NCBI GenBank assembly: GCA_018302335.1
Contig: JAGVZT010000046.1
Span: 1-60,743 of the forward strand
DNA: 60,743 nt
Direction of reading: 5' to 3'
DNA from: Candidatus Woesearchaeota archaeon
Lineage (GTDB): Archaea; Nanobdellota; Nanobdellia; Woesearchaeales; JAGVZT01
The notes under the pieces were generated by a model that saw only the letters and a list, made by a program, of their open reading frames with translations, searched no databases and was not told the DNA's origin. The stretch's first letter is position 1, and every line of letters starts with the position of its first letter. Below, piece by piece: positions 11,277-54,856 of the stretch. The translations under genes were made by a program, and so were the position numbers.

Positions 11277-11347
11277 GCCTGCGAAGAGGCCGGTCGGCTT
11301 TTGTCCGATGCGAAAGCTTTAAATATCAAGAAATTGCATGAGGTTTC

Positions 11348-11623: not shown

Positions 11624-11654
11624 AGCTTAAGAGCGGAAGCGCGCTCCCGGATTC

Positions 11655-12096
11655 ATGAAGCGTCCGCACAAGGCGAAGCCTCGCAGGCAGCAGGACCTCG
11701 CGAGGGAGCGCATCGCCATCCTCCTCGGCCAGGCTGCTGCGCGCTTTTCCGAAGGACCTCGCGAGGGAGCGCATCGCCATCCTCCTCGGCCAGGCTGCTG
11801 CGCGCTTTTCCGAGGAGCCGGAGCTGTCCAATCGCTACGTGCGACTCGCGCGGCGCATCGCCATGCGCGCGAAGGTCCATCTCCTGCCTGCAGAAAAACG
11901 TCGCATCTGCGCGGGCTGCCAGCGCTTCCTGGTGCCGGGAGCGAACTGCCGCACGCGTCTCTCGGGCGCCAAGGTCACGCTCACCTGTCTTGCATGCGGA
12001 AAGGTCTCGCGCTTCCCCTACCTCAGAGAGCAGCGGACGCGGCGGACCGCTTCCGCAGCTCCTCCGCAAGGAACACGGTCAGCGACACCGCAATGA
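11655..12096 (+). pseudogene. rnp4: RNase P protein Rpp21 (component 4), frameshifted as given by a 61-nt tandem duplication
   Basis: LARERIAILL N-terminus in one frame; YVRLARRIAMR...CAGCQRFLVPG...TCLACG..RFPY in another. Removing one repeat copy restores a single ORF. Confidence 0.88.
11692..11813 (+). repeat. Exact 61-nt tandem duplication
   Basis: 11692-11752 is identical to 11753-11813. Confidence 0.95.
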
Positions 12097-15734: not shown

Positions 15735-17222
15735 TCACCGCACGTCGAACGGCGACGCGGAGAGCAGCGCCCGCGCGTGCCCGAGCTTCTCCGAGCTGTC
15801 CGCGTAGAGCGTGAAAAGCGTATCACCCTTCTTTACCCTATCTCCGACGTGGACGTGGAGGTAGACCCCCGCGCCCTGGTCCTTCGGGGAGCCGAGGGCC
15901 CGCGCGATGCGTGCGATGAACTTGTTGTCCGCGCTGCGGATGGTACCCGGACGCGCCGCGCGGACTTCCTCGGTCTGCCGGCCGAGCACCAGCTCCTCCG
16001 GGCGTGAGGCCCGACGTCCCTGCGCGTCGATGATCTCCACCATCTTGCGATACGCCTTCCCGGAGCGCAGCAGCTCCTCCGCGAGCTTCACTCCCTCCCC
16101 GAGCGGGGCCGCTGAGCCCATCTCGAGCAGCTTGCCTGCCATCATGATACTCTTCTTGCGCAGGTCCGCAGGAGCGCGCTCATCGCCCAGAAGAATCCAG
16201 AGCACGTCACGGGCCTCCAGCGCGGAACCGATGCCGTTGCCGATGGGCTGAGCACCGTCCGTGAGCAGGACGTGGACTTCCATCCCAAGCTGCTTCCCTA
16301 TCCCCTCGAACAGCCCGCGGAGCCGCTCCCCGCGCTCCATGTCCCACACCTTCGCGCCAGCGCCCACGGGAATGTCTATCAGCACGTGCGTCGCTCCGAC
16401 GGAACGCTTCTTGGCGAGGACCGAGGCGATCATCTGGCCCTCGGCATCAAGGGACAGCGGGCTCTCCACGCGGATGATGCGGTCGTCCGCCGGGGCCAGC
16501 GCAAGGGCCCCGCCCCACACCATGCAGGCTCCCACGCGCTTGACGATGTGACGCAGCTCCGGCAGCGGCACCTCCACCCTGGCGAGAACCTCCATCACGT
16601 CCGCGGTCCCCGCGGCCGAGGTGATGGCGCGCGAGCTCGTCTTGGGGATGGTGAGCCCCGCCGCGGCCACGATGGGAACGACCACCATGGTGGTGCGGTT
16701 CCCGGGAACGCCGCCGATGCTGTGCTTGTCCATCACCGGAGGCGGGAAGTCCAGGGTCTCACCGTACTTCACCATCGCCTTGGTGAGGGCCGCGACCTCG
16801 TCCGCGTTCAGGCCGCGGATGTACGTCGAGGCGACGAAATACGCAATCTCTATCTCGCTGAGCTTGTTCCGGGTGATGTCGTACACAATCTCGCCGAGCT
16901 GCTCCTCGCTGAGACACGCTCCATCGAGCTTCGACCGGATGTGCTGCAGGCTCGCAGGCTTCTGCTCGAGCTGCACCTCGATGTTCTGGCCGTCGCGGAC
17001 GCCAAGCTCCTTCACGAGTTCGTCCATCAGCCCGATGACGCCCTGCCGCACCACACCCTGCGATGAGGTGATGTCGAGGATGGCAACGACGCGTCGCTTC
17101 CCGTGCGAGAGCCGGACGCGGTCCTCGAAATGGAGGTCCATCCGCTGGGCGTCGGAAGAGTGCAGCACGGCGATGAGCGGGCCCCCGGTCCCGATGTCCA
17201 GGTCCTTCACCGCGAGTTTCAT
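15735..17222 (-). CDS. deoA: AMP phosphorylase (archaeal nucleoside-monophosphate phosphorylase)
   Basis: Start MKLAVKDLDIGTGG overlaps the upstream stop (ATGA); DKHSIGGVPGN, PKTSSRAITSAAGTAD, LAPADD; N-terminal archaeal extension. Confidence 0.93.
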   Translation of the reverse strand: MKLAVKDLDIGTGGPLIAVLHSSDAQRMDLHFEDRVRLSHGKRRVVAILDITSSQGVVRQGVIGLMDELVKELGVRDGQNIEVQLEQKPASLQHIRSKLDGACLSEEQLGEIVYDITRNKLSEIEIAYFVASTYIRGLNADEVAALTKAMVKYGETLDFPPPVMDKHSIGGVPGNRTTMVVVPIVAAAGLTIPKTSSRAITSAAGTADVMEVLARVEVPLPELRHIVKRVGACMVWGGALALAPADDRIIRVESPLSLDAEGQMIASVLAKKRSVGATHVLIDIPVGAGAKVWDMERGERLRGLFEGIGKQLGMEVHVLLTDGAQPIGNGIGSALEARDVLWILLGDERAPADLRKKSIMMAGKLLEMGSAAPLGEGVKLAEELLRSGKAYRKMVEIIDAQGRRASRPEELVLGRQTEEVRAARPGTIRSADNKFIARIARALGSPKDQGAGVYLHVHVGDRVKKGDTLFTLYADSSEKLGHARALLSASPFDVR

Positions 17223-18268
17223 GAGCGCTGCTCCGGGTAGATCTCCAGGACCGCGACCGTCACCGTGAGCGCGAGCGGACCGAAGATGATTCCCGGAAAG
17301 CCCATGAGCGCGACTCCCCCGAGCACCCCGATGAATACCAGGACGGAGCTCACCTGGGCCCTCCCTCCCACGACGATGGACCGGATGACATTGTCGATGG
17401 TGCTGATGACCAGGAAGCTGTAGGCGAGCAGCAGGGACCCGGTCAGGGTCTGGCCGTCGAGGAGCAGCGCCGCGGAGAGCGGAAGCCACACCGCCGCCGC
17501 GCCGACGAAGGGGACCATGGCCGTCACTGTCATCACCGCCCCCCAGAAGATGGGCGACCCGACGCCCAGGAGGACCAGCCCGACCGTGCCCGCGACCCCC
17601 TGCGCAAGCCCCGCAAGGACATGACCGAAGAGCATCGCGTGCAGCGCCCGGTCGACGCGCTTCATCATGAGCTCCTCGTCCTTCCGGGAAAGAGGCACGA
17701 GAAGCCGGACCTTGGCGATGATGCTGTCGCCGTCGCGCAGCGCGGCGAACATCACGAGCAGCATGACCACCAGCGACAGGAGGAACCGGGGCACCGCGAG
17801 GACCACCTGGGGAGCGAGATTCCAGAGCCCCTCGGCGACGCGCTGGAGTGCCCTGTCAAGAAGGGCGCGGGCGCCAGGCTCGATGACCAGGTTGCGGTAC
17901 CTCGCGTTCACCGCGCAGGTGAGCGACTGGTCTTCCGCGCAGTCTGTGGCGAACAGCTCCCCGCTCTTGAGGCGTGAGACCGTGCCGGTGTACGACTCTT
18001 TCGCCTGCTGCACCGCGACCTGGCCGAGAAACCCCAGCGGGAGCAAGACCGCCAGCGCGACGAACGCCACCATCGCCACCGCGGCGATGTTCTTCCTGCG
18101 CACCTTGCCGCGGAGCCGCTCGTACGGCGGATAGAAGATGTACGCGAGGACGAGCCCGCCGATGATGGGCAGCAGGTAGGGCAGCATGATGAGGGCTGAC
18201 AGCGCGATGAGGCCGACGAGCACCGCGGAGAAGGCGTACTTTGCCTGGGTGGCGGTGTCCATGGTCAC
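17219..18268 (-). CDS. AI-2E (UPF0118/PerM) family transporter
   Basis: Multi-TM; PFVGAAAVWLP, IDNVIR, GFPGIIFGP. Confidence 0.92.
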   Translation of the reverse strand: MTMDTATQAKYAFSAVLVGLIALSALIMLPYLLPIIGGLVLAYIFYPPYERLRGKVRRKNIAAVAMVAFVALAVLLPLGFLGQVAVQQAKESYTGTVSRLKSGELFATDCAEDQSLTCAVNARYRNLVIEPGARALLDRALQRVAEGLWNLAPQVVLAVPRFLLSLVVMLLVMFAALRDGDSIIAKVRLLVPLSRKDEELMMKRVDRALHAMLFGHVLAGLAQGVAGTVGLVLLGVGSPIFWGAVMTVTAMVPFVGAAAVWLPLSAALLLDGQTLTGSLLLAYSFLVISTIDNVIRSIVVGGRAQVSSVLVFIGVLGGVALMGFPGIIFGPLALTVTVAVLEIYPEQRS

Positions 18269-41718: not shown

Positions 41719-42300
41719 ATGAGAGGAGACAAACGGGAAAGAATCCTCCGCGTCATACTGAATAGCCAGGAGAGCCTCAGCAAAAATGAAATCTCCCTGA
41801 AAGCGGGGTGTACCCGGCAATGGGTCATCCTTTTCCTGAGAACTCTTGAAAAGCGCAAACTTGTGAAAGGGACGTCTCCTCTAGACCGGGCAAAGCTCCT
41901 TTGTTATTGGGCTGACTTGGCCGAAAAGCCACGTAATTTCAAGAGTTACATGGTGAAGGAACCGATGGAGCTCTTGAAGGGAGTGAAGATGGATTATGCG
42001 CTCACCACCTACATGGGAGAGAACCTGGTCCAGCATTTCCTGTTCCCTTCCAGGATAGACATCTACATTCGGGAAAAGGACATGGACAGATGGCATAAAT
42101 TGCTGACAGCGAACGGCCTATACGGGAAAGGGAATGTCAGGATTATCTTAGCCGACGAGCACGTCATGTATGGCGCAACGAAGATTCATGGCATCACAGT
42201 TGTATCGGAGCCGCAGCTTCTCATCGATCTCATGAAAGAGGGGGGTCCATGCCAAGAAGCGGCTGAGATGCTCACAAAGAGGATATCACATGTACGCTGA
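41719..42300 (+). CDS. wHTH plus AbiEi-like antitoxin/regulator (type IV TA)
   Basis: N-terminal HTH, YALT, DIYI, GNVRI, VSEPQLLIDL motifs; lower GC than flanks. Confidence 0.72.
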   Translation: MRGDKRERILRVILNSQESLSKNEISLKAGCTRQWVILFLRTLEKRKLVKGTSPLDRAKLLCYWADLAEKPRNFKSYMVKEPMELLKGVKMDYALTTYMGENLVQHFLFPSRIDIYIREKDMDRWHKLLTANGLYGKGNVRIILADEHVMYGATKIHGITVVSEPQLLIDLMKEGGPCQEAAEMLTKRISHVR

Positions 42301-43060
42301 CTTCGAGACACGGACTTCCTTCCGGTATCTCAGGGAAGTGATACGGGGCCTGAACGACCCAATCTGCATACTCGGAGGCTGGGCGGTTTATTTCCATGTG
42401 AATGAAAGATTCGAGAGAGGGCAGGGAAGGCCGTATCTCGGCAGCAGGGATATCGACCTCGGTTTCTCCATGTCAGGGGACATGAAGGAGTCAGCGCTTG
42501 CCAAGGCTATCATCATACTGAGGGATACACTTGGATTCCGGCCGCTGAGCTTCCGGTTCTTCAAGGAGATTCATACCGAGACCGGAGAAGAAATCCGGAA
42601 AGGGGAGATTGTCCCGTCCTACTACATATTTCCTATGTACGTCGATGTCATAGTGGATACTATACCTGCTGGCTTCAGGAAGGTCTTCGGATTCGACCCT
42701 ATCGATGAGTCTCTGCTCACCCAGGTCTTTGAGAAGAAGGAATATCTCTCCGTGAAAGTGTTTGGCAGGAGAATCCTGCTTCCGAAGCCGGAGCTCCTGC
42801 TGGCAATGAAGGTACATTCCCTTCCGAATAGGGACAAGGAACATAAGCAGGTCAAGGATATCTGTGACGCATTTGCCCTCGCATGGTACACAGGTATCAG
42901 GCTGGACAAGCTCAGTCTCGCAGAGTACCTACCGAAGAAGGATTTCGGCAGATGCCTCAAGGCGATAAGCAGAGAGCGCATCGAGAAAGCATCGGCTTTG
43001 GTAGGCCACGAGCCGGAAGAGATAACGCGGATTCTGAACTTCGTGTGCGAAAAAAAGTGA
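42290..43060 (+). CDS. AbiEii-like nucleotidyltransferase toxin
   Basis: ILGGWAV, SRDIDL, LLAMK, KDICD; overlaps the upstream regulator. Confidence 0.78.
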   Translation: MYADFETRTSFRYLREVIRGLNDPICILGGWAVYFHVNERFERGQGRPYLGSRDIDLGFSMSGDMKESALAKAIIILRDTLGFRPLSFRFFKEIHTETGEEIRKGEIVPSYYIFPMYVDVIVDTIPAGFRKVFGFDPIDESLLTQVFEKKEYLSVKVFGRRILLPKPELLLAMKVHSLPNRDKEHKQVKDICDAFALAWYTGIRLDKLSLAEYLPKKDFGRCLKAISRERIEKASALVGHEPEEITRILNFVCEKK

Positions 43061-43232: not shown

Positions 43233-43967
43233 ATGCCGGAGGAAGTCCTCTTCGCAGGCAAGACCTTCACGGTACCTGACCCCAGGCACACCGCGGTGCT
43301 TCCAGGCCAGCTCGGCTACGAGAAGCGAGACCTCATCAGGCTCCTCGGCGAGCATCTCTCCCCTGATTTCACCGTGCTGGACGCCTATGCCGGGGTGGGG
43401 ATAGGGACCTACCTCTACCTCCGGGCGGGCGCATCCTGCCTTGCCGTGGAGAAGGACGCAGAGATGTTCGCATGCCTTGAGCGCAACCTTCGAGGCGAAC
43501 GGGCAGTCCTGCGGGAACAGGACAACAGGCGCACCCTTGAGGAGCTTCTCGGTCGCGGCGCTGCCTTCGATGTCATCGACCTCGACGCTCCCGGGGATTT
43601 CCATGAGCAGCTGGCGATGTCATTCCGACTCATGGATAGCGGGTATCTCTGGCTTACGACCTGCGAGTACATGCATATCCAACGGAATCTCAACAGGAGC
43701 ACCCTTGAGCGCCGCTACGGGGCCGGGATTGAGGAGCTCTACCTCACCAGGGACAGGTACGCCTTCCAGGAGATGGTCTCCAGGCACGTGGAGGCCATCG
43801 GAAGCACCGCAGGCCATGAAGTGCAGCTGGTGCACCATGCCATCGGCCGCACCGCGGTGCGCCTGCTGTTCTCCGTGGACACGACGGTCCCGCGTGGACT
43901 TACTGATGAGCTTTCGGCGAGGGAGCGCTATTTCGGCCCGCGCCGGACGGGACAAGCCCCTTCATGA
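43233..43967 (+). CDS. Class I SAM-dependent methyltransferase (Trm1-like motifs, short)
   Basis: VLDAYAGVG, AVEKD, FDVIDLDAPG, GYLWLTT. Confidence 0.75.
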   Translation: MPEEVLFAGKTFTVPDPRHTAVLPGQLGYEKRDLIRLLGEHLSPDFTVLDAYAGVGIGTYLYLRAGASCLAVEKDAEMFACLERNLRGERAVLREQDNRRTLEELLGRGAAFDVIDLDAPGDFHEQLAMSFRLMDSGYLWLTTCEYMHIQRNLNRSTLERRYGAGIEELYLTRDRYAFQEMVSRHVEAIGSTAGHEVQLVHHAIGRTAVRLLFSVDTTVPRGLTDELSARERYFGPRRTGQAPS

Positions 43968-44403
43968 GCTTCTTCACGCGCTCCTGGCTCCAGGTGGTGT
44001 CGCACTGCAGCAGGGAGTCGCACTGCGGGCAGTAGTGCGGGATTTTGACCAGGTCAGCGAGGCGCATCACCGTCTCCGCGGAGAAGGTGTGCTCCAGCTC
44101 GCAGACCTCCTGGTGGATGCCGTTCGCGTCGCGGCCAAGGGTCTCGGTGAGGAAGAGCGCGATGACCATGTACTTGTACGCGACCATCCGCGCCTGTTGT
44201 TCGCCATCCTTGGTGAGCGCGAGCGTCCCGTAGCGCTCGTGAGAGAGCATTCCTGCCTTGGCGAGCCTGCGGACCATCTCGGAGACGCTTCCGGCGCGGA
44301 CATGGAGGTACTTCGCCAGGGCCTGTGCGCGCACCGGATGATGGCCTGCCTTCTGCAGGAAGAAGACTCCGCGCAGGTAGTTCTCCTCTGCCTGGGTGAG
44401 CAT
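43900..44403 (-). CDS. DtxR/MntR-family metal-dependent regulator
   Basis: EENYL, LAKYL.V..GSVSEMVRRL, LTKDG, VCELEH, C-terminal CPQC. Confidence 0.9.
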   Translation of the reverse strand: MLTQAEENYLRGVFFLQKAGHHPVRAQALAKYLHVRAGSVSEMVRRLAKAGMLSHERYGTLALTKDGEQQARMVAYKYMVIALFLTETLGRDANGIHQEVCELEHTFSAETVMRLADLVKIPHYCPQCDSLLQCDTTWSQERVKKLMKGLVPSGAGRNSAPSPKAHQ

Positions 44404-44452
44404 GAGGGAAGAGGCTGTTCAGCGCCATTTAAAGCTAACGCCGCGCTTTCCT

Positions 44453-44514
44453 GAACCGCGGTGCCGTAGTTCCGCATTGTCTCGCTGGCATGCCGGAAAT
44501 TCTCAGCACGGCCG
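44453..44514 (-). repeat. Dispersed palindromic repeat copy
   Basis: Reverse complement CGGCCG.GCTGAGAATTTCCGG..GCGAGACAATGCGGAACTACGGCA. Confidence 0.7.
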
Positions 44515-44555
44515 ATGTCCACGTAACTAGAAGAAAAGAAAAGAAGCAGGCCGAC

Positions 44556-44612
44556 TTACTCGTCGGTGTCGAAGTCGTCGTCGTTGTCGTCCCAGTCGTC
44601 GTCCCAGCGCAT
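44556..44612 (-). CDS. 18-aa acidic micropeptide MRWDDDWDDNDDDFDTDE
   Basis: GGAGGT Shine-Dalgarno, upstream AAAAGCTTAATA box, downstream T-rich tract. Confidence 0.55.
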   Translation of the reverse strand: MRWDDDWDDNDDDFDTDE

Positions 44613-44765
44613 GGTGGTGACCTCCTCGCCCGCTTGGGGCGCACGCGGTTGAGCCAAGCCTCCTATTAAGCTTTTCCCCCAAAAAACCGGAAAAGTGTAC
44701 ATTTCCCAGGAAAAGTATTCGGTATGCCCGTAAAGCTCAACTGCCCCGGCAGCGCTGGAGAGAGC

Positions 44766-46511
44766 ATGCCTCGCATCGCCCTCTGCCAGACGAATCCGGT
44801 GACCGGAGACCTCGAGGGCAACGTGCGTCAGATTCTCCGCGACATCGAGCGCGCAAGACGCTCCGGAGCGGAGATAGCCCTCTTCCCGGAGGCTGCCATC
44901 ACCGGGTACTGCTGCGGGGCGCTCTTCGAGCAGGAGCGCTTCATCCGCGACAATCTCGCTGCTTTGGACGACATCGCTGCCGCTGTCCCCCAGGATATGC
45001 TCGCAGTGGTTGGTTTCGTGGATTGCCGCGGCAGGGAGAAATCCGGGGCGCTGCGGCTGACGAGCAGCGCCGCGCTCCTCCAGGGAGGCCGTAGCATCGG
45101 GGCCTACGATAAGATGCTGCTCGCGAACGAGGCCCATCACGAGGACCGGAAATACTTCACCCCGGGCGATGCCGCGAAGGTCTTCGAAGTGATGCTTCCG
45201 TCCGGACCGATTCGCGTGGGGACTCCCATCTGCGAGGACGCCTGGGCGCACCAACACGAGCGCGACGTCATCGCGGAGATGGTCGCTGGAGGCGCTGAAC
45301 TCATCCTCTGCCTCAACCAGAGCTATTTCCACCACGGGAAGCAGCAGCTGCGTAGGGAACTCTTCGGCACCCATGCGGCCCACAAGGGGGTTCCCGTTGC
45401 CGCGGTGAACGCCTCGGGCGTCGGAGACATCGTGAAGAACATCATGCTCTACGACGGTGGGAGCCTCGCGTTCAACGCCCAAGGAGAGCAGCTCGCGGAG
45501 CTCGCGAGGTTCGCTCCGGACTTCAGTGTCATCTCGCTGGACGGGCCGGCAGTGCGACCAAGAGAGCGGGGGAAAGAGGAGGAGTTGCATGATGCGCTGC
45601 TCTTCGCCCAGCGGGAAGTCTTCCGGTGCCTGGGCATCCCGAACGCCCAGGTGCACCTCTCCGGGGGAGTGGACAGCGCCTTGGTCGCCGCGCTCGTGGC
45701 CGAGGCGATGGGCCCTGAGCATACTGTGCTCATCAGCAATCCGACCGAGGACAATGGCCCGGAGCTGCGGGCGATGGCGCAGGCAATCGCTGACAATCTC
45801 ACTCTGCCGCTGCATTGGAACGACAGCCAGGCGGCGTACGAAAGCATCGTCCGCGCGCATACTGCTGCGTTCGGCGCTGCTCCCTCGCCCAAAGGCAGGG
45901 GATGCATCGAAGCCGTGCTCCGCACCGCCCAGGGGGTCGGGGCGTACCATCACTTCCGCTCGGGCATCGTCGCGACAGGCAACCATACCGAGATTGTCGA
46001 AGGCTGGGCGACATTCCACGACATCGGCTCCATCGGGGTGCACGCCCTCATCGGCGACCTGACCAAGACCGAGGTGTACGCGCTCGCGCGATACGTCAAC
46101 CAGCGCGCAGGGCACGAGATTATTCCCGCGCAGCTGTTCGACGGCAGGATCCGCCCTGCAGCAGAGCTTGCCGATGCCAACGAGGACCCGCTGGACTACT
46201 TTGTCCGCGCAGGAATCTGCGCGGAGCTGGTCCGCTGCGGCAGGCATCCGGACGATATCATCGAGCGCTTCCGCAGGAAGGAACTGGACCCGCAGCTCTT
46301 CCCGGAGGACTGGAGCGGCCGCAGCGTCTACCGACACACGGAGGAAGAGTTCTCGGCCGAGGTATGGGAGGCTTTCCGCAACGCCAAGGCGAGCGTCTTC
46401 AAGTCTGCGCAGGGCGCGCCGGTGGTGCTCGTCTCCCCGAGAAGCCGCGGCTTCTCCTCGCGGGAGACCGTCATCAATCACTATAGCGGTGGCTACCGGA
46501 GGCGCTCGTGA
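44766..46511 (+). CDS. nadE: Glutamine-dependent NAD+ synthetase (nitrilase plus synthetase domains), divergent
   Basis: Nitrilase triad FPE / YDK / ICED; LSGGVDS P-loop, ATGNHTE, IGDLTKTEVY, PAAEL. Confidence 0.88.
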   Translation: MPRIALCQTNPVTGDLEGNVRQILRDIERARRSGAEIALFPEAAITGYCCGALFEQERFIRDNLAALDDIAAAVPQDMLAVVGFVDCRGREKSGALRLTSSAALLQGGRSIGAYDKMLLANEAHHEDRKYFTPGDAAKVFEVMLPSGPIRVGTPICEDAWAHQHERDVIAEMVAGGAELILCLNQSYFHHGKQQLRRELFGTHAAHKGVPVAAVNASGVGDIVKNIMLYDGGSLAFNAQGEQLAELARFAPDFSVISLDGPAVRPRERGKEEELHDALLFAQREVFRCLGIPNAQVHLSGGVDSALVAALVAEAMGPEHTVLISNPTEDNGPELRAMAQAIADNLTLPLHWNDSQAAYESIVRAHTAAFGAAPSPKGRGCIEAVLRTAQGVGAYHHFRSGIVATGNHTEIVEGWATFHDIGSIGVHALIGDLTKTEVYALARYVNQRAGHEIIPAQLFDGRIRPAAELADANEDPLDYFVRAGICAELVRCGRHPDDIIERFRRKELDPQLFPEDWSGRSVYRHTEEEFSAEVWEAFRNAKASVFKSAQGAPVVLVSPRSRGFSSRETVINHYSGGYRRRS

Positions 46512-47128
46512 TGGACCTTGGCGTCGTGGGGGTCATCGGACGGTGGAAGCCGCTGCACAACGGCGGCGCGCTCATGCTGGACACCCTCTGCGCAAGGGCA
46601 GATCTCGTCAAGCTCGGCATCGGGAGCGCGAACCGCTACGATGCGAGAAATCCGTTTACCGCAGAGGAGAGCGAGGGGATGCTCCGCGCCTATCTCAAGC
46701 CTGAATGCAACTGCGAATTCATCCACGTGCCGGACTTCGGCCATCTGCCCGAGCACGCGGACGGACAGCGGTGGCGCGAGGAAGTCCTCCGTCTGTACGG
46801 TGAGCTGGACTGCTTCGTCTCCGGGAACGCCTATGTCCGGGAGCTCCTCAAGGACGATTACCGTGTCATCCATCCCGCGGAACTCATCCCGAAGGAGGAG
46901 CAGCTCTGGCTGCGCGCGGCCCAGGTCCGGGTGGAGATGGCGCGCTCCGGCCCGTGGGAATCGCTGGTGCCGGAGGAGGTCTCGCGCTACATCACGTCCG
47001 CCCGGCTGGACGAGCGCTTCCGCAGCGAGTTCGGGCTCCAGACGCTCGGGGAGCTGGTCAGCGACGCCTACCTACGAGGAGAAAGTAGCGAGCAGGAACG
47101 CTCACATATCGGAGGGGAGACACCATGA
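46508..47128 (+). CDS. NMN/NaMN adenylyltransferase-like (NadM) protein
   Basis: IGRWKPLHNGG, GIGSAN...NPFTAEE, WESLVP. Confidence 0.8.
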   Translation: MMDLGVVGVIGRWKPLHNGGALMLDTLCARADLVKLGIGSANRYDARNPFTAEESEGMLRAYLKPECNCEFIHVPDFGHLPEHADGQRWREEVLRLYGELDCFVSGNAYVRELLKDDYRVIHPAELIPKEEQLWLRAAQVRVEMARSGPWESLVPEEVSRYITSARLDERFRSEFGLQTLGELVSDAYLRGESSEQERSHIGGETP

Positions 47129-47886
47129 AGATAGGGAACTACAAGGTCATACGGCAGATTGGCGAGGGAGGCTTCGCGCGGACGTACGAGGCGGAGCATC
47201 TCGTGCTGGGCAAGAGAGCCTGCCTCAAGCAGAATCTCTCCCTCTCCGACCTCGATGCCGAGGTGCTCAAGGAAGAAGCCGCCCTGCTCTGGGACGTGCA
47301 CCACCACTCCCTGCCGCAGATGAAGGACTTCTTCCGCGCTCCGGACGGGAGCTGCATCCTGGTGATGGACTTTGTCGAGGGCAGGAACCTTGAGGAGCTG
47401 GTCGGCGCGAAGGGCCCCCTACATCCGGAGGACGCGAGCTGGGTGATGCAGCGCCTGCTCCAGGCCTTGCACTACCTGCACAGCAAGGGCATCGTGCATT
47501 CCGACGTGAAACCCCAGAACATCATCGTCCAGCCGAAGCAGCACAATGCGGTGCTCGTGGACTACGGCCTCTCGTCATTCCGGCCTTCGGGGGACACCCG
47601 GCCGCTGGGTTACACCGAGGCATGGGCGGCCCCGGAGCTGCTGCTCGGCAAGCCTCCCCTGCCGGAGAGCGACCTCTACGGCGCGGGGATGGCGCTGCTC
47701 TATGCCCTGGGAGGGGATATCCTCACGAAGAGCATCCCCGACAGCGTGCCCGCTCCGTTGCGGGAGTTCTGCGAATCGCTCCTGAAATACGACGCGAAGG
47801 AGCGGCCGCGCTGGGAGAGCGTGGACCTGGTGAAGAGACTCTCGGATATCAGACAAGAGGCCTTCGGGAGAAGGCACACGAGGTGA
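47125..47886 (+). CDS. Hanks-type Ser/Thr protein kinase (cytoplasmic, kinase domain only)
   Basis: GEGGFA, ACLK, HSDVKPQN, DYG, APE, SDLYGAG. Confidence 0.95.
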   Translation: MKIGNYKVIRQIGEGGFARTYEAEHLVLGKRACLKQNLSLSDLDAEVLKEEAALLWDVHHHSLPQMKDFFRAPDGSCILVMDFVEGRNLEELVGAKGPLHPEDASWVMQRLLQALHYLHSKGIVHSDVKPQNIIVQPKQHNAVLVDYGLSSFRPSGDTRPLGYTEAWAAPELLLGKPPLPESDLYGAGMALLYALGGDILTKSIPDSVPAPLREFCESLLKYDAKERPRWESVDLVKRLSDIRQEAFGRRHTR

Positions 47887-47891
47887 GGGAG

Positions 47892-48854
47892 ATGTACAGC
47901 TGGGGAGACGACACATCGACATGGACAGGACCGGGCAGCTACGACTACGGCTCCGCGCGGCGCGCGTATCTGGACTCGCTGGCGAAAGCCGGTCCGCGGA
48001 CGTACGCGGCGAGGAGCGAGCCGGACATGAAACTCGTGGCTCCGCAGAAGACCATCCGCTCGGAGAGCAAGAATCCCGTGGTCATCGCGGTCGATGTCAC
48101 GGGAAGCATGGCGCACTGGCCCGCGGAGATCTTCGACCGGCTGCCCCTGCTCTACCAGACCCTGACGAAATACCAGCCGGACGTCGAGTTCTGCTTTGCC
48201 GCGATAGGGGACGCGAGCTGCGATGCCTATCCCCTGCAGGTCAACGACTTTGCCAAGGAGACGGACCTCGACGCGAAGCTCAAAGCGCTCTGCGCCGAGG
48301 GCGGCGGAGGAGGGCAGCACTTCGAGAGCTATGAGCTCTTCGCGCAGCACATGGCATCCAGGTGCGAGACGCCCAACGCGACGTCGCCTTTTCTCATCGT
48401 CTTCGGGGACGAGGGATTCTACCCCAAGGTCAACCCGGACCAGGCTGCGCACTATCTCGGAGCAGGGCTGGAGGCCGAGGTCGATTCCCAGGAGCTCTGG
48501 CAGAGCCTGCTCCAGAAGTTCGACGTGTATCACCTGCACAAGGAATACGCGGACCTGCGCCTGGACAAGGAGATTGTCTCCCAGTGGCAGTCCGCGCTGG
48601 GAAAGCAGCGCGTCATCCCCCTCTTCGAGGCGGAGCGTGCGGTGGACGTCGCGATGGGGCTCATCGCGAAGCGCTGGGGCCACTTCGGGGACTTCGAGGA
48701 CAATCTCAGCGCCCGGCACGACGCTTCGGAATCGGCCTCCGTGTACGCATCCCTGCGCCACGTCCCCGCTGCGACAACGGACGGCAAGAGCGCCATGACG
48801 CGCACGGGCACGGCAGGGAAGAGCACGGCGCTGGACGGTGAGGACGATGCCTGA
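47892..48854 (+). CDS. vWA-domain protein
   Basis: MIDAS DVTGSM, AIGD, EGGGG, ESYEL, FGDE; GAGGTGA RBS. Confidence 0.88.
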   Translation: MYSWGDDTSTWTGPGSYDYGSARRAYLDSLAKAGPRTYAARSEPDMKLVAPQKTIRSESKNPVVIAVDVTGSMAHWPAEIFDRLPLLYQTLTKYQPDVEFCFAAIGDASCDAYPLQVNDFAKETDLDAKLKALCAEGGGGGQHFESYELFAQHMASRCETPNATSPFLIVFGDEGFYPKVNPDQAAHYLGAGLEAEVDSQELWQSLLQKFDVYHLHKEYADLRLDKEIVSQWQSALGKQRVIPLFEAERAVDVAMGLIAKRWGHFGDFEDNLSARHDASESASVYASLRHVPAATTDGKSAMTRTGTAGKSTALDGEDDA

Positions 48855-49737
48855 CGCCATCGTCACCGTGCCGCCGCATGCCTCCTTCATCACGGAGGTG
48901 GCGTGCCATCCCCTCGTGTCGGGGCTGCGCCTCAACACCGTCATGCCGGTCAAGGGCTCCCTGGAGGATACGCTGAAGCGCCTGCTGGACACCGGGAAGA
49001 CCATCTACGTCGATCTGAAGTGCAGGCAGCTGCGCGTCAGAACCTTCGGAGTGCCGCCCTTCACCGAGATTGAGCTGACCCATCGCATCGCCGTAGAAAC
49101 GCCGGTCACGGCGTACTTCAGCGGCGGGAAAGAGCGCGCGACGGTGCTGGAGGTGGACGGGAACAGGCTCATCATGGCCGAGGGTCCTCATCGCGTGGTG
49201 GGACCGGGCGAGAGCGTCAACATCCCGCATCCCTCGCTCCGCGTGGAAGGGTACCTCACCGAGCTGGACAGGAGATACATCGAGGCAGGGGCGCGCGTCG
49301 GCGTGCGGGACTACATGCTGTCCTTCGTGGAGAGCGGCCGTGATATCACCGAGCTGACCGCGCTGCTCCCGGAGGCGCGCGTCGTGGCGAAGATAGAGTC
49401 AGCGCGGGGACTAGGGTACATCGCGGCCGAGTGGGACCACGAAGCGCGATTGATGGCCGCGCGAGGAGACCTCTACCTCGAGGTCGAGCGGCCGCACCAC
49501 ATCGCGGCGGCGCTGGACAGCATCATCCGCACCGACGCGAGCGCCATCGTCGCATCACGGCTGTTCGACTCCATGGCACTGCACGCTGAGCCGGAAAGCG
49601 CGGACATCATGGACGCGGATGCCCTGCTCCGCATGGGCTACCGGACCTTCATGCTCGGGGACGAGGTCTGCCTGAAGCGGGAATCGGTCCTGGGAGCATT
49701 GAATCTGCTGGAGGCAGTCGCGGAGCGATACGCTTAA
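48847..49737 (+). CDS. Pyruvate-kinase-fold protein lacking the C-terminal domain
   Basis: GLRLN, DLKCRQLR, B domain, LSFV, AKIES, ARGDL, SRLFDSM, MLGDE. Confidence 0.82.
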   Translation: MPDAIVTVPPHASFITEVACHPLVSGLRLNTVMPVKGSLEDTLKRLLDTGKTIYVDLKCRQLRVRTFGVPPFTEIELTHRIAVETPVTAYFSGGKERATVLEVDGNRLIMAEGPHRVVGPGESVNIPHPSLRVEGYLTELDRRYIEAGARVGVRDYMLSFVESGRDITELTALLPEARVVAKIESARGLGYIAAEWDHEARLMAARGDLYLEVERPHHIAAALDSIIRTDASAIVASRLFDSMALHAEPESADIMDADALLRMGYRTFMLGDEVCLKRESVLGALNLLEAVAERYA

Positions 49738-49766
49738 AGCGGCGGCGTCGCTCCGGAGGGACAGGA

Positions 49767-50264
49767 ATGGCAAAGACGCGGAATCCGCCTACTGCGGTGG
49801 ATGTGGTCATCGAGCTGTACCGTCCGGGAACGAATCTCGCTGGCCCGGAACTGGAAGCGCTGGAGGGCATCGTGCTCATCGAGCGCGGCCGTCCTCCATT
49901 CCAGGGAAAATGGGCCCTCCCTGGCGGCTTCCAGGAGTACGGGGAGTCTCTGGAGCAAACGGCAGTACGAGAGGCGAAGGAGGAGACAGGTCTGGATGTC
50001 GTGCTGGTGTCACAGCTCTCGACTTATTCTGCCCCTGACCGCGACCCGCGCGGGCATGTCAACTCCGTCGGCTATATCGCGCGGGCGACTGGCTCTCCGC
50101 TAGGCGCTGATGACGCAGCGCAGGCGCAGGTCTTCCCGTTGGACCAGCTGCCCGAGCTGGCCTTCGACCATGCGAAGCGAATAGAGGAGGACTACTGGGG
50201 ATGGCGCTCACACCAGTCCCTGCGGAATCTCATCGACCGTCTCTACGGGGGAGACAGATGGTAG
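49767..50264 (+). CDS. NUDIX hydrolase (ADP-ribose pyrophosphatase-like)
   Basis: WALPGGF..GESLEQTAVREAKEETGL Nudix box, RDPR, DDA, LAFDH. Confidence 0.93.
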   Translation: MAKTRNPPTAVDVVIELYRPGTNLAGPELEALEGIVLIERGRPPFQGKWALPGGFQEYGESLEQTAVREAKEETGLDVVLVSQLSTYSAPDRDPRGHVNSVGYIARATGSPLGADDAAQAQVFPLDQLPELAFDHAKRIEEDYWGWRSHQSLRNLIDRLYGGDRW

Positions 50265-51250
50265 AACGCTACAAGGCGACGTTGCTCGGCTGCGGGATAG
50301 GCGACGCGCTGGGCCAGCAGGTGGAGGGCTGGTCCGCGGAGGAGATTGCGCGGTATGCCGGCCGCATCACCGGACTCATCGGCCAGCCTTACCTTCCCGC
50401 TGATGCGACCGTGCGCAGGCACAACAGGAAGAGAGGCGAATGCACGGATGACACCATCCTCACCCTTGCGGTCGCCGAGTCCATCGTCTCGTGCGGCGGG
50501 CTCAATCTCGAGGACATGTGCGCCCGGCAGCTCCGCGCGTACTCCGCGAGGAAGCGGCCCGACGGCAGCGTTGCCGGAGGCTTCGGCCGCACGACGCGGG
50601 AGGCATTCGAGCACATGCTGCGCGGCATTCCACCGGAGGACGCCGGTGTCGACGGACTTGGCAACGGGCCGGCGATGAAGATGGCACCCGTGGGACTGTA
50701 CATGGCATCCTCCGGGAGGTACGAGGAGGGCATCCGTTTCGCCGCAGCGCTCGGATACACCACGCACCTCGACCCGCGGAGCATCGCCTCGGGGGTGGTG
50801 CAGGCGCACGCCGTCTGCGCCCTGCTCTCCTACGCGACGCGCGATGCATTCCTGGATTCGCTGGTCGATGCGAGCGCCCGCTGCGAGTCCGCGCTCTCGC
50901 CTCCCCGTCAGCTTTCGAACGCAGGAAGCCTCACCGAGCGCCTTGCGTGGGTGCGGGACCACCGCGATGCGGACGCCGATACCGCGCATCGGGTCCTCGG
51001 CTCTTCGGGACTCGCGTTCGAATCGCATCCCTTCGCGCTCTTCATGCTCCAGCGCCACTGGCAGGAGCCGCTTTCGGGCATGCTCGCGACCATCAACGCA
51101 GGAGGAGACACCGACACCACCGGGGCATTGTACGGCGCGCTCTGCGGGGCGCTGCACGGCATGGTCTTCCCCGCGGAGTGGGTTACGCCGCTGGACTGGG
51201 AATCCCTTGTTGCGGCGGGGCAAGGTATTTATGCGCTCCGGAAACCCTAG
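50258..51250 (+). CDS. ADP-ribosylglycohydrolase (DraG/ARH family)
   Basis: GDALG, TDDT, GNGPAM..APVG, TH, GGDTDT. Confidence 0.93.
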   Translation: MVERYKATLLGCGIGDALGQQVEGWSAEEIARYAGRITGLIGQPYLPADATVRRHNRKRGECTDDTILTLAVAESIVSCGGLNLEDMCARQLRAYSARKRPDGSVAGGFGRTTREAFEHMLRGIPPEDAGVDGLGNGPAMKMAPVGLYMASSGRYEEGIRFAAALGYTTHLDPRSIASGVVQAHAVCALLSYATRDAFLDSLVDASARCESALSPPRQLSNAGSLTERLAWVRDHRDADADTAHRVLGSSGLAFESHPFALFMLQRHWQEPLSGMLATINAGGDTDTTGALYGALCGALHGMVFPAEWVTPLDWESLVAAGQGIYALRKP

Positions 51251-51254
51251 GGAC

Positions 51255-52082
51255 ATGAGCATGCTCATCGTCGCGCGGCAAAGCAAGTACGAGTGGGAGC
51301 TCGCCAAGGGCACCACGCACCAAGAACTCTGCCAGCGCTTTTCTTCTGCCCCGGAGAAGCTGGAAGCCATCCTGCAGAGCCACGAATCCCAGGTCCGAGT
51401 GCGAGAGGAACTGGCCTCGCTCACCTCGGCCGAGATGCGGATGCTCGGCGAGATTCACGAACCGCTTGCCCACGACCTGGTCATCTCGCTCGGAGGCGAC
51501 AACAGCTTCACCTACGTGAGCCATTACGTCACGGGCGTGCTGATGGGCGTGAACGCAGACCCCGGACGGAGCGCGGGCGCGCTGTGCTCCTGGAGCTCCG
51601 CGGACCTCGGCGCCGTGGTGAGGGCTGCGCAGGGCGAATATCGCGTGGAAGCATGGCCGAGACTCATCGCCGATGTCAATGGCGTCGCGATGCTTCCAGC
51701 GACCAGCGAATATTTCCTCGGGGAGCGCGAGCGCCTGCAGATGTCGCGGCATCTCCTGCGGTACCGCGGCACGGAGTACGACCAGAAGGGCTCCGGGCTG
51801 CTCATCGCGACCGGCGCAGGCTCGACAGGATGGTACCGCTCCTACGGCAGCGCGTTTCCGAGAACCGAGAGCAGAGCGGGCATCGCCCTGACGGAGCCCT
51901 TCATCGCGGCCGGACTGTCCCTTGGGGAGTTGCTTCCCGGGGAAGCCATCGAGGTGGTGTCCCTGAACGACAGCGAGGGCATCGTAAGCTGCGACTCCTG
52001 GCAGAGCGTTCCCTTCCCGAGCGGGGCGGTCGCGACGGTACGCATCGCTGAGACGGCGCTGCGCGTTGCCGTGCCGCGGTAA
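51255..52082 (+). CDS. NAD kinase, NADK2-like
   Basis: SKYEWE, LGGDNSF, GVNADP.RS.GALC, QKGSGLLIATGAGSTGW. Confidence 0.85.
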   Translation: MSMLIVARQSKYEWELAKGTTHQELCQRFSSAPEKLEAILQSHESQVRVREELASLTSAEMRMLGEIHEPLAHDLVISLGGDNSFTYVSHYVTGVLMGVNADPGRSAGALCSWSSADLGAVVRAAQGEYRVEAWPRLIADVNGVAMLPATSEYFLGERERLQMSRHLLRYRGTEYDQKGSGLLIATGAGSTGWYRSYGSAFPRTESRAGIALTEPFIAAGLSLGELLPGEAIEVVSLNDSEGIVSCDSWQSVPFPSGAVATVRIAETALRVAVPR

Positions 52083-52149
52083 GGGCGCGGGCCGCGGGGT
52101 GCTCGCCCGGGACTGCACATTTTTATATGGCCTCTGGCCCTTTCCTTCT

Positions 52150-53244
52150 GTGGGACGTCTCACGTCGTGGAAGCACTGGCCCCTGCTGCTCGGCGCAGTC
52201 ATCGTCGCTGCGGCGGTTCTTGCCGCTCTCCGCATCTCCCCTGAGGAGCAGGGGTACCGCGACGCGCTCCTGCTCAGCAGGGAATGGTACCTCAACAACC
52301 AGGACGACTTCTTCCTCCACTACACCTACTATCCTGAAGAGGACGCGTACAGCAACGAGACCCACAGGCTCCGGGAGGTGGCTGCGCTGTGGAATGTGGC
52401 GACGCTCGCCAATGAGCTCGACGACCCGGAACTGAGGACGCTGGCCCAGCGCGGTTTCTCTTCCTTCGAGAAAAGCTTCGAGTTCGACTCCGAGGGGAGG
52501 TTCTTCTACGTGGACATCACCCCGAAGAGCGTCAAGCTCGGCTACTCCGCCTTCATCATCCTCGCCCTGCTCGAGATGGAGCACCCGCGCAGGGACAACT
52601 ACCTCGACGGCTTCGCAGAGGGCATACTCTCCCTCCAGAACGAGGACGGCTCCTTCGACACCCACTTCTTCTCCAATAGCACGAGCAGCACGGACTATTA
52701 TCCCGGAGAGGCAATGACCGCCCTCATGGCGCTGTACTATCATGACGCCGATGAGCGCTATCTCAGCGCGGTGAAGAGGGCGTTCCCGTACTACATCTCT
52801 TACTGGAGGGGGAATCCAACCACCGCCTTTGTGCCCTGGCAAAGCCGCGCCTACAGCCAGCTGCACCGGACTGTGCCGGACACCATTGTCGGCGATTTCG
52901 TGTTCGAGATGAATGACTGGCTGCTCGAGAGGCACGAACCTTCAGGAGAGTGCAGGTATTTCGCATTTGACGACAGACGCAGCACCGTCGGCGTGTACAT
53001 GGAGGGGGTCGCCGAGGCGTATGCTCTCGCCAAGAGGCGCGGGGACGCCCTGCACGCGAGGTGCTACGGGAACTACCTGCGCGAGGGCGCCGGGTTCCTT
53101 GCCGACATGCAGGTGAAGGCGTCCGAGCACGCTGCTGCGGTCGGCGGCTTTCCCGGTGCTGACGGCTCCATGAGGGTGGACAGGCAGCAGCACGCGGTGT
53201 TCGCGCTCCTCGGGGCGTGCGATGCGGGCGCGATCGAGTGCTGA
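52150..53244 (+). CDS. Membrane-anchored extracellular protein with a probable alpha/alpha toroid fold (start uncertain)
   Basis: N-terminal TM helix, LQNEDGSF, YYPGEA, AFVPW, RVDRQQHA; TTTTATAT box about 22 nt before the GTG. Confidence 0.65.
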   Translation: MGRLTSWKHWPLLLGAVIVAAAVLAALRISPEEQGYRDALLLSREWYLNNQDDFFLHYTYYPEEDAYSNETHRLREVAALWNVATLANELDDPELRTLAQRGFSSFEKSFEFDSEGRFFYVDITPKSVKLGYSAFIILALLEMEHPRRDNYLDGFAEGILSLQNEDGSFDTHFFSNSTSSTDYYPGEAMTALMALYYHDADERYLSAVKRAFPYYISYWRGNPTTAFVPWQSRAYSQLHRTVPDTIVGDFVFEMNDWLLERHEPSGECRYFAFDDRRSTVGVYMEGVAEAYALAKRRGDALHARCYGNYLREGAGFLADMQVKASEHAAAVGGFPGADGSMRVDRQQHAVFALLGACDAGAIEC

Positions 53245-54059: not shown

Positions 54060-54749
54060 TCACCCGACCGCATCGAAATAGGACCGCAGTTCCTCTTTCA
54101 GCTCGCCGATGGAATCGAACACGAACAGCACCTCGTTGAAGGTGGTGATGGCCTTGTCCCGCCTGAGGATATCGTGAATCCTGAACTTCTGCATCTTCGT
54201 ACCGCCGCTCATCACCTTGTCGGTCTCGCTCTTGGAGGAGATGATGCCCGCACCGAAGATTTTCATCTCGTCCTCCTCCATGATGAGGCCGAATTCGGTG
54301 CTGAACCACGCCAGTCGCTTGATGTTCTCCCGCTGCTCCTCGTTCGCGCGGCGGAAAACGGGAGCGAACATGTCCTGCAGCGCGGTGTAGTGAGGCAGGA
54401 CCATGAGCGGCATGTGGCCGAAGATATCATGGAACATGTCCGGCTCCGGCGTGAACTCCAGCTCTTCCCAGCTGCGCATGTAATCCGTGATGAGGAACTC
54501 CTTCTTGATGAAATGGTCGTTGTACCAGGGAAAGGCGTCGGTGTAGCGCACTGCGGTCCTCATGGTCCTCCATCCTGTGCGGGGGGTGATGACCGCGTTC
54601 AGCTCCTCCAGCTGCGGAATCCTGTCGTGAGGCAGCTTCAGGATGTCGAAGCCCCGCAGCCAGTCGCTGCACGCGTGCTTCCTCGCGCGCGGCAGCTGGT
54701 TGGCGTAGAGCCTTGCCCAAATCCTGTGCTGGTCCTCGGTGAACTCCAT
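54060..54749 (-). CDS. phhA: Phenylalanine 4-hydroxylase (pterin-dependent aromatic amino-acid hydroxylase)
   Basis: RIPQL, TGW, TPEPDMFHDIFGHMP (two Fe-binding His), WFSTEFGL (Fe-binding Glu), FGAGIISS. Confidence 0.92.
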   Translation of the reverse strand: MEFTEDQHRIWARLYANQLPRARKHACSDWLRGFDILKLPHDRIPQLEELNAVITPRTGWRTMRTAVRYTDAFPWYNDHFIKKEFLITDYMRSWEELEFTPEPDMFHDIFGHMPLMVLPHYTALQDMFAPVFRRANEEQRENIKRLAWFSTEFGLIMEEDEMKIFGAGIISSKSETDKVMSGGTKMQKFRIHDILRRDKAITTFNEVLFVFDSIGELKEELRSYFDAVG

Positions 54750-54856
54750 CCCGGACACTGAGGAACTCGCTTCTTTTAATGATTTTCGCCAGCCGACTCC
54801 CTGCTGGATACCGGGTGCGCGGCAAAGCTTATAATCCCTGAGGACAAGATGCACGC

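Follow-up and report, generated by a model that had tools for sequence, protein, structure and literature searches.

The window analysed here, contig JAGVZT010000046.1 at its full length of 60,743 nt, comes from a Candidatus Woesearchaeota archaeon (assembly GCA_018302335.1) and carries, between positions 44766 and 52082 of the plus strand, eight open reading frames (ORFs) that run in the same direction, have a high GC content at third codon positions and overlap or sit at most 29 nt apart. Their products resemble a nicotinamide adenine dinucleotide (NAD) synthetase (nadE-like), a nicotinamide mononucleotide adenylyltransferase (NMNAT-like), a Hanks-type Ser/Thr kinase, a von Willebrand factor A protein (vWA-like), a small pyruvate kinase (PK-like, or mini-PK), a Nudix hydrolase, an ADP-ribosylglycohydrolase (ARH) and an NAD kinase (NADK-like). 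Our best reading of this DNA is that the eight genes make up an operon on the chromosome of an archaeon with a small genome, and that their translation is coupled. The function that we favour for it, as a tentative proposal, is that of an accessory NAD(P) and ADP-ribose salvage operon joined to a phospho-regulated vWA–mini-PK unit. What is conserved in other genomes is not the eight-gene set: the conserved heart is the vWA and PK-like pair, joined in cells by the NMNAT-like gene and, in archaea and phages, by the kinase.

Gene linkage was scored around 80 vWA loci taken from other, species-representative genomes (36 archaeal and 44 bacterial), the ORFs of which were compared with the window proteins. 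An NMNAT-like gene adjoined the vWA gene in 77 of the 80 loci (34/36 archaeal, 43/44 bacterial) and a PK-like gene in 72 (32/36 and 40/44). The kinase (34/36), Nudix (26/36), NADK-like (16/36) and ARH (9/36) genes accompanied the vWA gene in archaeal loci and in none of the 44 bacterial ones, while NadE was found in 15 of the 36 archaeal and 29 of the 44 bacterial loci. The misses are in part contig ends; at least 1.2 kb of sequence downstream of the vWA gene was present in only 32 archaeal loci. Linkage of these genes in 80 loci besides that of the window shows that the arrangement goes beyond chance, and the neighbourhood search that an earlier, sequence-only reading of this DNA had suggested as a check came out in its favour. 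The eight-gene unit described in that reading fared less uniformly: all eight families do occur together in three loci (L014, L055 and L030), but what is generally conserved is the vWA and PK-like pair, together with NMNAT-like in cellular loci and with the kinase in archaeal and phage ones.

The relatives are numerous and widely spread. The vWA-like protein has 1052 relatives with an E value of 1e-3 or lower; identity to it is 51–63% among the best 120, and those of the 120 that bear names come from Woesearchaeota, Nanoarchaeota and other DPANN metagenome-assembled genomes; for the PK-like protein there were 1951 relatives, with 57–68% identity among the best 120. Mean column identity was 51–64% for the NMNAT-like, vWA and PK-like families. 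The bacterial loci belong to Chloroflexota, Planctomycetota, Acidobacteriota, Myxococcota and two bins with the label Clostridia; a cultured myxobacterium is among the carriers of the four-gene form seen in bacteria. Recurrent neighbours of the archaeal loci were isochorismatase/PncA-like proteins (20 loci), nicotinate phosphoribosyltransferase (NAPRTase, 19), GNAT (9) and NadA (8), and no defence or mobility family was seen among the recurrent neighbour families examined around these loci. Moreover, 14 archaeal loci contain, between or beside their vWA and PK-like genes, a further gene of about 297 aa that has no Pfam match and is missing from the window; the loci that carry it include L014, L019, L021, L026, L027, L031, L035, L037, L038, L041, L048 and L055.

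With regard to the DNA itself, all junctions between the eight genes were read again, and the one-strand arrangement with overlaps or short gaps that had been described for them proved correct. The nadE-like and NMNAT-like genes overlap by 1 nt, NMNAT-like and the kinase by 4 nt (ATGA), vWA-like and PK-like by 8 nt, and Nudix and ARH by 7 nt, while gaps of 5, 29 and 4 nt separate the kinase from vWA-like, PK-like from Nudix and ARH from NADK-like, respectively. It should be underlined that gene starts are start codons selected in this analysis and that the junction lengths depend on them. The domain calls of the sequence-only reading (NadE, NMNAT-like, kinase, vWA, PK-fold, NUDIX, ADP-ribosylglycohydrolase and NAD kinase) likewise held when examined by Pfam, family profiles, phmmer and structure models, as detailed below.

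The kinase matched Pfam Pkinase at 4.7e-36 (125 bits against a cut-off of 31.7) and contains the Gly loop and the HSDVKPQN, DYG and APE motifs. With an E-value limit of 0.01, the vWA-like protein had no match in Pfam or NCBIfam, and hence none to a Pfam vWA model; it matched phrog_2971 at 9.2e-27. Its AlphaFold2 model (predicted local distance difference test, pLDDT, 84.2; predicted template modelling score 0.84) had as best Foldseek matches in the PDB the vWA domains of CMG2/ANTXR, integrin beta I-like and Ku80 (probability 1.00, E from 1.3e-6), so that a vWA alpha/beta fold is confirmed at the level of the predicted structure. The fold is taken from the model because the family profile gave only a chance match against PDB sequences (E 0.58). 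The invariant columns of the family include D68, T70 and S72 (within D-V-T-G-S), which would correspond to a metal site of the MIDAS (DxSxS) type, and also D107, D111, D173 and E174; the putative metal site is adjoined by an invariant Gly-rich loop (EGGGGGQ in the window protein). In the ESM Atlas the nearest clusters are sets of "hypothetical protein" entries from bacteria and Uroviricota and gave no functional lead.

The C-terminal end of the vWA protein differs with the gene company it keeps. The window protein ends in a disordered Ser/Thr/Lys-rich tail, with a pLDDT below 50 from residue 296 of the model. No archaeal vWA protein, the 34 linked to a kinase included, has a zinc ribbon, and the complete ORFs among these 34 end in a Ser/Thr/Lys-rich tail of about 40–50 aa, whereas 36 of the 44 bacterial proteins, which are without the kinase, carry a CxxC...CxxC zinc ribbon at this end; seven further bacterial proteins, from Planctomycetota-type loci, are short. 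This pattern of tail, kinase and zinc ribbon tracks the split between archaea and bacteria and is therefore not an independent test. The vWA gene may also be present in several copies: in genome G009 (contig C34, 8411-10342; locus L097) two tandem vWA-like genes lie between the kinase and PK-like genes, and more than one vWA-like copy was seen in G011, G094, G221 and G307 as well.

The PK-like protein matched the pyruvate kinase barrel at 1.8e-13 (PF00224, 50.7 bits against a cut-off of 30), and its family profile (A2) matched PDB pyruvate kinases at 2.3e-15. Its model has a pLDDT of 95, and all 50 PDB matches listed by Foldseek were pyruvate kinases, with E about 1e-20. The architecture is that of an A barrel with a short B domain, and the chain ends after the barrel. 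Four invariant motifs (R-x-N, D-x-K...R, K-I-E and A-R-G-D) line up with those of the other PK of the genome; within the family K-I-E-S and A-R-G-D do not vary, and the catalytic Lys, Glu and Asp are kept. Thus the protein shares with canonical pyruvate kinase the A barrel, the B domain and the catalytic motifs; unlike it, the protein has only 296 aa, a shorter B domain and no C-terminal allosteric domain, and it is always found beside a vWA gene. Its scores are far below the curated PK cut-offs (NCBIfam 61 bits against 432; TIGR01064 59.7 against 306). The other PK of this genome (G000; contig C34, 46926-48074) is also short, 343 aa from the first Met, and seemingly lacks a C-terminal domain.

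As to the NAD and ADP-ribose enzymes, the nadE-like protein contains both the nitrilase-type glutaminase and the PP-loop synthetase domain (Pfam CN_hydrolase 1.4e-22, NAD_synthase 3.7e-18), with FPE, CED and SGGVDS motifs in its translation, and scores below the curated equivalog cut-off (NF010588, 239 bits against 479). The NMNAT-like, vWA-like and NADK-like proteins had no Pfam match over the cut-off. Homology of the NMNAT-like protein to the archaeal NMNAT MJ0541 was seen with a 28-sequence family profile (A3), which matched 1f9a at 2.1e-28 over residues 6-171, and its score is again below the curated cut-off (NF002243, 72.9 bits against 127). The complete HxGH motif is a hallmark of NadM-type NMNATs, and in the window protein this position reads H-N-G-G. 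Of the 76 family members, 41 have the second His, and 75–76 have the first His as well as R11, P14 and R140. The loss follows the gene company, with the second His present in 36 of 43 loci without a kinase compared to 5 of 32 kinase-linked loci; this contrast, too, tracks the archaea/bacteria split and is not independent evidence. Because the cluster protein is the best NMNAT match in genomes G011 and G021, and in G021 the only one, the family as a whole probably consists of working NMNATs.

The Nudix protein matched Pfam NUDIX at 8.8e-21 (74.8 bits against a cut-off of 21.1). The Nudix box is defined as GX5EX7REUXEEXGU, and it is complete in this protein, which has no DNA-binding domain; its nearest NCBIfam models are the NtrR and NadM-Nudix ADP-ribose pyrophosphatase domains, all below cut-off. 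ARH matched PF03747 at 4.2e-56 (191 bits against 26.2), has the GDALG and GGDTDT metal-site motifs and lies below the DraG equivalog cut-off (75.6 against 337). For the NADK-like protein the phmmer matches were weak but specific, to the NAD kinase 1suw (1.8e-5) and to human NADK2 (7r4j, 2.3e-5); NF002892 matched at 7.8e-7, far below its cut-off, and no NAD_kinase Pfam domain was matched. It reads GGDN where NAD kinase has GGDG, as do 4 of the 16 NADK-like ORFs of the loci in which a GGD motif was located. Judged by these scores, almost all of the cluster enzymes are divergent members of their families and not standard equivalogs.

We examined whether these proteins are the only ones of their kind in the host. 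The genome measures 1.56 Mb in 75 contigs, is 93% complete and has an archaeal small-subunit rRNA. The window carries the alanyl-tRNA synthetase AlaRS, split RNA polymerase B and A subunits and MutS, by which a viral or plasmid contig is ruled out; a recent transfer from a low-GC donor is likewise ruled out by the GC content, which is 0.63–0.66 in the cluster, 0.633 in the window and 0.625 in the genome. Four public DNA runs, each from a different study, yield contigs that bridge both cluster ends, so the cluster is not an assembly chimera. Elsewhere in the genome we found a separate NadE on contig C34 (215 bits; 33.5% identical to the cluster protein), a separate canonical NadM on C66 (135.5 bits, over the curated cut-off, with the motif HLGH), a separate PK on C34 (210.8 bits) and a NADK paralog on C72, which has the canonical GGDG, is the sole PF20143 match in the genome and shares 34% identity over 109 aa with the cluster protein. 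The identity of the cluster copies to the separate paralogs is 29–34%. The search for separate housekeeping genes that had been suggested together with the sequence-only reading was thereby answered: because of these four genes, the cluster does not hold the sole housekeeping NAD genes, and it is an accessory second NAD set. The N- and C-terminal halves of the C72 NADK (about 48090-48795) lie in different reading frames in the assembly, which may point to a genuine pseudogene or to a mistake made in sequencing or assembly; if the break is real, the GGDN protein of the cluster would be the only intact NADK-like gene of the genome.

The distribution of the module among relatives is patchy. A search for the vWA gene gave no match in 7 same-family relatives and matches in 7 of 33 from the remaining families of the order; across the phylum, 15 of 301 genomes, each with a completeness of 90% or more, had it. 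An NMNAT match (E up to 1e-10) was present in 6 of the 7 module-positive order relatives, in 13 of 33 module-negative ones and in 1 of the 7 family relatives; about half of the searched order relatives had none. All five bacterial carriers that were checked have a canonical NadD elsewhere in the genome, and in four of the five the module NadE is the best NAD-synthase match.

Members of the vWA family were also present in 219 phage records, 200 of them mycobacteriophages; in phage I3 the vWA homologue gp271 follows the kinase gp270, and the kinase–vWA pair is carried by mycobacteriophages of a laboratory strain. Among 37 viral contigs, the kinase stood beside the vWA gene in 27, a PK-like gene completed a kinase-vWA-PK series in 9 and ARH was present in 1, whereas NMNAT, NadE, Nudix and NADK were found in none of the 37; a pattern scan of viral contigs for PK-like gave 1 locus, and PK-like was seen in 3 phage records. 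An uncultured 485-kb phage (LR745208, locus L099) has consecutive kinase, vWA and PK-like genes, with ARH 5 kb away, and its kinase (10932-11966) carries an N-terminal DnaJ (J) domain (1e-14). Thg1-like, HNH, ARH and GNAT genes come after it within 8 kb. In a FastTree tree of 118 vWA sequences the 81 cellular ones were set apart by a branch with 99% local support. Their neighbours were 8 of the 9 viral sequences that are accompanied by PK-like; the ninth (L100) formed a long branch among other viral sequences. Bacteria made up one group (98%), and the window sequence stood at the base of a 21-member archaeal group, with L008 as its nearest neighbour. The tree is unrooted and does not give the direction of transfer.

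The salvage operon that we favour would work as follows. By their families' roles, ARH frees ADP-ribose, Nudix cleaves it, NMNAT and NadE rebuild NAD, and NADK makes NADP. In the window, ARH would release ADP-ribose from ADP-ribosylated substrates, Nudix would split ADP-ribose or related dinucleotides, the NMNAT-like and NadE-like enzymes would rebuild NAD from mononucleotides and the NADK-like enzyme would make NADP. The mini-PK would pass phosphate from phosphoenolpyruvate (PEP) to a nucleotide, most simply from PEP to ADP to give ATP, feeding the ATP-hungry rebuilding steps. By means of its metal site and Gly-rich loop, the vWA protein would serve as a regulatory or adaptor subunit of the mini-PK, functionally replacing the missing allosteric domain. 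In archaea and phages the kinase would switch this unit by phosphorylating the Ser/Thr-rich vWA tail, for which the phosphorylation of the ArnB C terminus by ArnC offers a precedent, and in bacteria the zinc ribbon would stand in for tail and kinase. The coupling to NAD genes would reflect ATP supply to an ATP-costly pathway or a further phosphorylation step. In this scheme we infer the substrates throughout, as well as the contacts between the proteins, the target of phosphorylation and the direction in which control runs.

Several observations weigh against the salvage operon with a phospho-regulated mini-PK. The phage cassettes are without any NAD-synthesis gene (0/37), so the cassette must be useful without NAD enzymes, and plain ATP supply leaves a dedicated mini-PK unexplained in bacteria with large genomes and ordinary metabolism. 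The NMNAT-like protein of the window lacks the second His, like those of 27 of the 32 kinase-linked loci compared to 7 of the 43 without a kinase, and may on this account be impaired or altered. Most cluster enzymes are far below the curated NCBIfam cut-offs. Finally, a search for longer forms of the vWA protein gave one 597-aa protein covering 16% of the query and no informative fusion, which is weak evidence either way. A bolder form of the proposal, which we think rather unlikely, is that NMNAT-like, vWA and mini-PK make up a new complex of NAD metabolism, switched by the kinase in archaea and phages or fitted with the zinc ribbon in bacteria, in which PEP-driven phosphotransfer is coupled to dinucleotide synthesis or ADP-ribose recycling.

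The sequence-only reading had seen in the operon a means of reversing attack on NAD or by ADP-ribosylation. In a general form this would be a conflict system which protects from, or recovers after, NAD depletion and ADP-ribosylation by a virus, host or competitor, with the kinase–vWA pair as sensor or switch. Such a role would suit a set that is accessory and patchy (0/7 family relatives, 15/301 phylum genomes) and duplicates housekeeping genes; the vWA relatives are common in phages (219 records and 37 viral contigs), one huge phage has kinase-vWA-PK with ARH 5 kb off, and the rebuilding of NAD by phages that face NADase defences has been described (10.1101/2024.02.11.579819 and PMC13464706, in the accessible text of these sources). 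The conserved cellular neighbours are, however, salvage genes with no defence or mobility family among the recurrent ones examined, the viral copies come without NAD-synthesis genes and in only one case out of 37 with ARH, and the base composition is like that of the genome. Moreover, PADLOC-DB 2.0, with which a defence system had been proposed to be sought, matched no system: six of the eight proteins had no match, the kinase matched generic models (mad6, PD-T4-6) and Nudix matched PDC-S07 at 1.6e-8. Hence gene content, tight operon, conserved linkage and non-housekeeping status stand from the earlier interpretation, and the reversal of attack is not supported; we consider a conflict role unlikely. 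Slightly less probable still, in our view, is new chemistry, by which NMNAT-like, vWA and mini-PK (with NadE-like) would make or recycle a non-canonical nucleotide, such as a PEP-derived or extra-phosphorylated dinucleotide, or NAD by way of a mini-PK that phosphorylates a riboside or ADP-ribose intermediate. The sequence-only reading had itself named a modified dinucleotide as a possible product, as its alternative to the reversal of attack. The three genes are nearly inseparable in cells and strongly conserved (51–64%), the NMNAT-like enzyme is extra in that the five bacterial genomes checked all keep canonical NadD, motifs are altered recurrently (HxGH to HxG(G/A/S), GGDG to GGDN), and the invariant Gly-rich vWA loop by the metal site could bind a phosphate ligand. 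Set against this are the alignable PK catalytic residues, all of which are kept and fit ordinary PK chemistry, the position of the NMNAT-like protein as sole NMNAT candidate in G021, which means that it probably makes NAD, and the lack of any pointer to a specific product.

Neither do we give much credence, and no more than to new chemistry, to the view that kinase, vWA and mini-PK are a self-contained and possibly phage-derived cassette controlling the PEP-to-pyruvate step or another target, with its NAD neighbours there by co-regulation or hitch-hiking. The cassette does stand alone in viral contigs (9/37 with PK-like, none with NAD genes), eight of the nine PK-carrying viral vWA proteins are sister to all 81 cellular ones (99% local support in the unrooted tree, with L100 on its long branch elsewhere), and the DnaJ domain of the phage kinase suggests regulation at the protein level. 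Hitch-hiking is nevertheless hard to square with the cellular loci, which span two domains and five or more bacterial phyla and have the vWA gene next to NMNAT-like in 77 cases out of 80; start and stop codons of the operon genes overlap as well. That the operon is simply the organism's plain NAD operon with unrelated neighbours is very improbable, even though the cluster NMNAT-like is the best or only NMNAT match in some relatives and the module NadE the best NAD-synthase match in four of five bacteria: this genome has separate NadE, NadM and PK genes, the module was not found in any of the seven family relatives, and it is the supposedly unrelated neighbours that show the strongest conservation within the cluster.

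Known systems share parts of this arrangement. NrtR-regulated NAD salvage operons of bacteria reportedly form Preiss-Handler/NadM-Nudix clusters of pncA, pncB, nadM, nadE and nadK. The NadE, NadM-type NMNAT, Nudix and NADK families are common to these and to the window, and PncA-like, NAPRTase and NadA occur in the related archaeal loci. In contrast to these clusters, kinase, vWA and mini-PK are embedded in the present operon, the Nudix protein has no DNA-binding domain and therefore is no NrtR-type regulator, and the set here is a second, diverged copy whose scores stay under every curated cut-off. The TerY-P triad, which Anantharaman, Iyer and Aravind are said to have described in 2012, reportedly combines a vWA protein, a PP2C phosphatase and a Ser/Thr kinase in tellurite-resistance-associated loci. 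That triad resembles the window in pairing vWA with a Hanks-type kinase near nucleotide-like metabolism genes; there is, unlike in the triad, no PP2C phosphatase in this cluster, and this vWA family is without a Pfam model.

In Sulfolobus acidocaldarius, ArnA, ArnB and ArnC/ArnD form the regulatory module of the archaellum (PMC6509490, PMC12852372), and the C terminus of ArnB holds all known phosphosites (PMC6509490), according to the accessible parts of these papers. The likeness to the window lies in a Hanks-type kinase paired with a vWA protein, which in the case of ArnB is phosphorylated in its C-terminal part, and in a phospho-switch of a protein complex, which for the window is a proposal. 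The differences are that no FHA domain was found by Pfam among the eight genes and that metabolic enzymes, not motility regulators, adjoin the kinase–vWA pair here. The phage NAD reconstitution pathways are described, in the accessible text of PMC13464706, as NARP1 (Adps and Namat), NARP2 (NadV and NMNAT) and NARP3 (PnuC and NadR). They are alike in that NAD-rebuilding gene sets are carried by mobile genomes, and unlike in that the PRPS-like Adps, the Namat/NadV phosphoribosyltransferase, PnuC and NadR were absent among the eight proteins by Pfam and NCBIfam and in that the viral relatives of this module have no NAD-synthesis gene. With none of the defining proteins, as given in that text, in the cluster, identity with NARP1, NARP2 or NARP3 was ruled out. 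A survey of viral NAD and ADP-ribose systems (PMC9503650) contains in its accessible text no instance of "pyruvate", "NMNAT" or "NadE" and a single one of "vWA", in another context. A full-text literature search, supplements excluded, gave no description of the kinase-vWA-mini-PK trio, in keeping with the sequence-only reading, in which this exact combination was not recognised as characterised. The operon is thus a variant of known NAD salvage clusters with an embedded trio that is undescribed in the searched literature.

The coordinates of the eight genes and of the adjoining regions are given in Table 1.

Table 1. Genes of the operon and flanking elements, in window positions
Feature	Position	Strand	Basis or remark
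DtxR-family repressor gene, divergent	43900-44403	-	DtxR Pfam matches
Intergenic, presumed promoter region	44404..44765	+	362-nt spacer; divergent DtxR-family repressor gene upstream
nadE-like (glutamine-dependent NAD synthetase-like)	44766-46511	+	Pfam CN_hydrolase + NAD_synthase
NMNAT-like (NadM-type NMN adenylyltransferase-like)	46511-47128	+	Family profile vs 1f9a
Hanks-type Ser/Thr kinase, catalytic domain only, 253 aa	47125-47886	+	Pfam Pkinase
vWA-like	47892-48854	+	AlphaFold2 model + Foldseek
PK-like (mini pyruvate kinase), 296 aa	48847-49737	+	PF00224 + model
Nudix hydrolase, 165 aa	49767-50264	+	Pfam NUDIX
ARH (ADP-ribosylglycohydrolase, ARH/DraG family)	50258-51250	+	PF03747
NADK-like	51255-52082	+	phmmer vs solved NAD kinases
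GC-rich stretch, then T5 + TTTATA-like element	52083..52130	+	Sequence reading

The spacer upstream of the operon contains an A/T-rich TATTAAGC about 95 nt upstream of the nadE-like ATG and is the presumed promoter region, and in the stretch after NADK-like the operon is likely to end and the following gene to have its promoter. A tiny ORF (44556-44612, minus strand) within the upstream spacer encodes an extremely acidic, Asp/Trp-rich peptide of 18 residues and could be due to chance. The ORFs that flank the operon at 41719-43060 and 52066-53244 (193, 256 and about 354–392 aa) had no Pfam match; the protein encoded downstream (about 354–392 aa) has a hydrophobic N-terminal segment. The GC content dips to 0.564 at 42 to 44 kb of the window. 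The flanking DtxR-like and 354-aa proteins had no match in any of five family relatives with these queries, run with no positive control. Further away, a gene for an AMP-phosphorylase-like protein (Glycos_transf_3 and PYNP_C, 584 aa; 15735-17489, minus strand) lies 27 kb upstream of the operon; this enzyme would be predicted to use AMP, the expected product of the Nudix step. A homologue of biopterin-dependent aromatic amino acid hydroxylases (1.1e-36) is encoded at 54060-54854 on the minus strand, which to our knowledge, and as an impression, looks unusual for a small-genome archaeon.

Few areas of biochemistry are mapped as well as NAD metabolism, yet a strongly conserved vWA protein and an equally conserved PK without C-terminal domain, neither with a described role, adjoin an NMNAT paralog in 72–77 of 80 archaeal and bacterial loci. 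The viral proteins most closely related to them are encoded by large phages. The window adds to this a genome with a separate paralog for every one of the cluster's NAD enzymes, the pattern of tail, kinase and zinc ribbon, the HxGH pattern and the nested viral-cellular tree. Provided that its three members work together as one functional unit, the trio would be a new control point between PEP/ATP and NAD, a new salvage step or a new archaeal phospho-switch. Should the NMNAT-like, vWA and mini-PK proteins indeed form a new complex, they would provide a route to NAD or a related nucleotide outside the de novo, Preiss-Handler, NadV/NadR and NARP pathways, spread among phages, DPANN archaea and at least five bacterial phyla. 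The finding also bears on how tiny symbiotic archaea gain autonomy in NAD.

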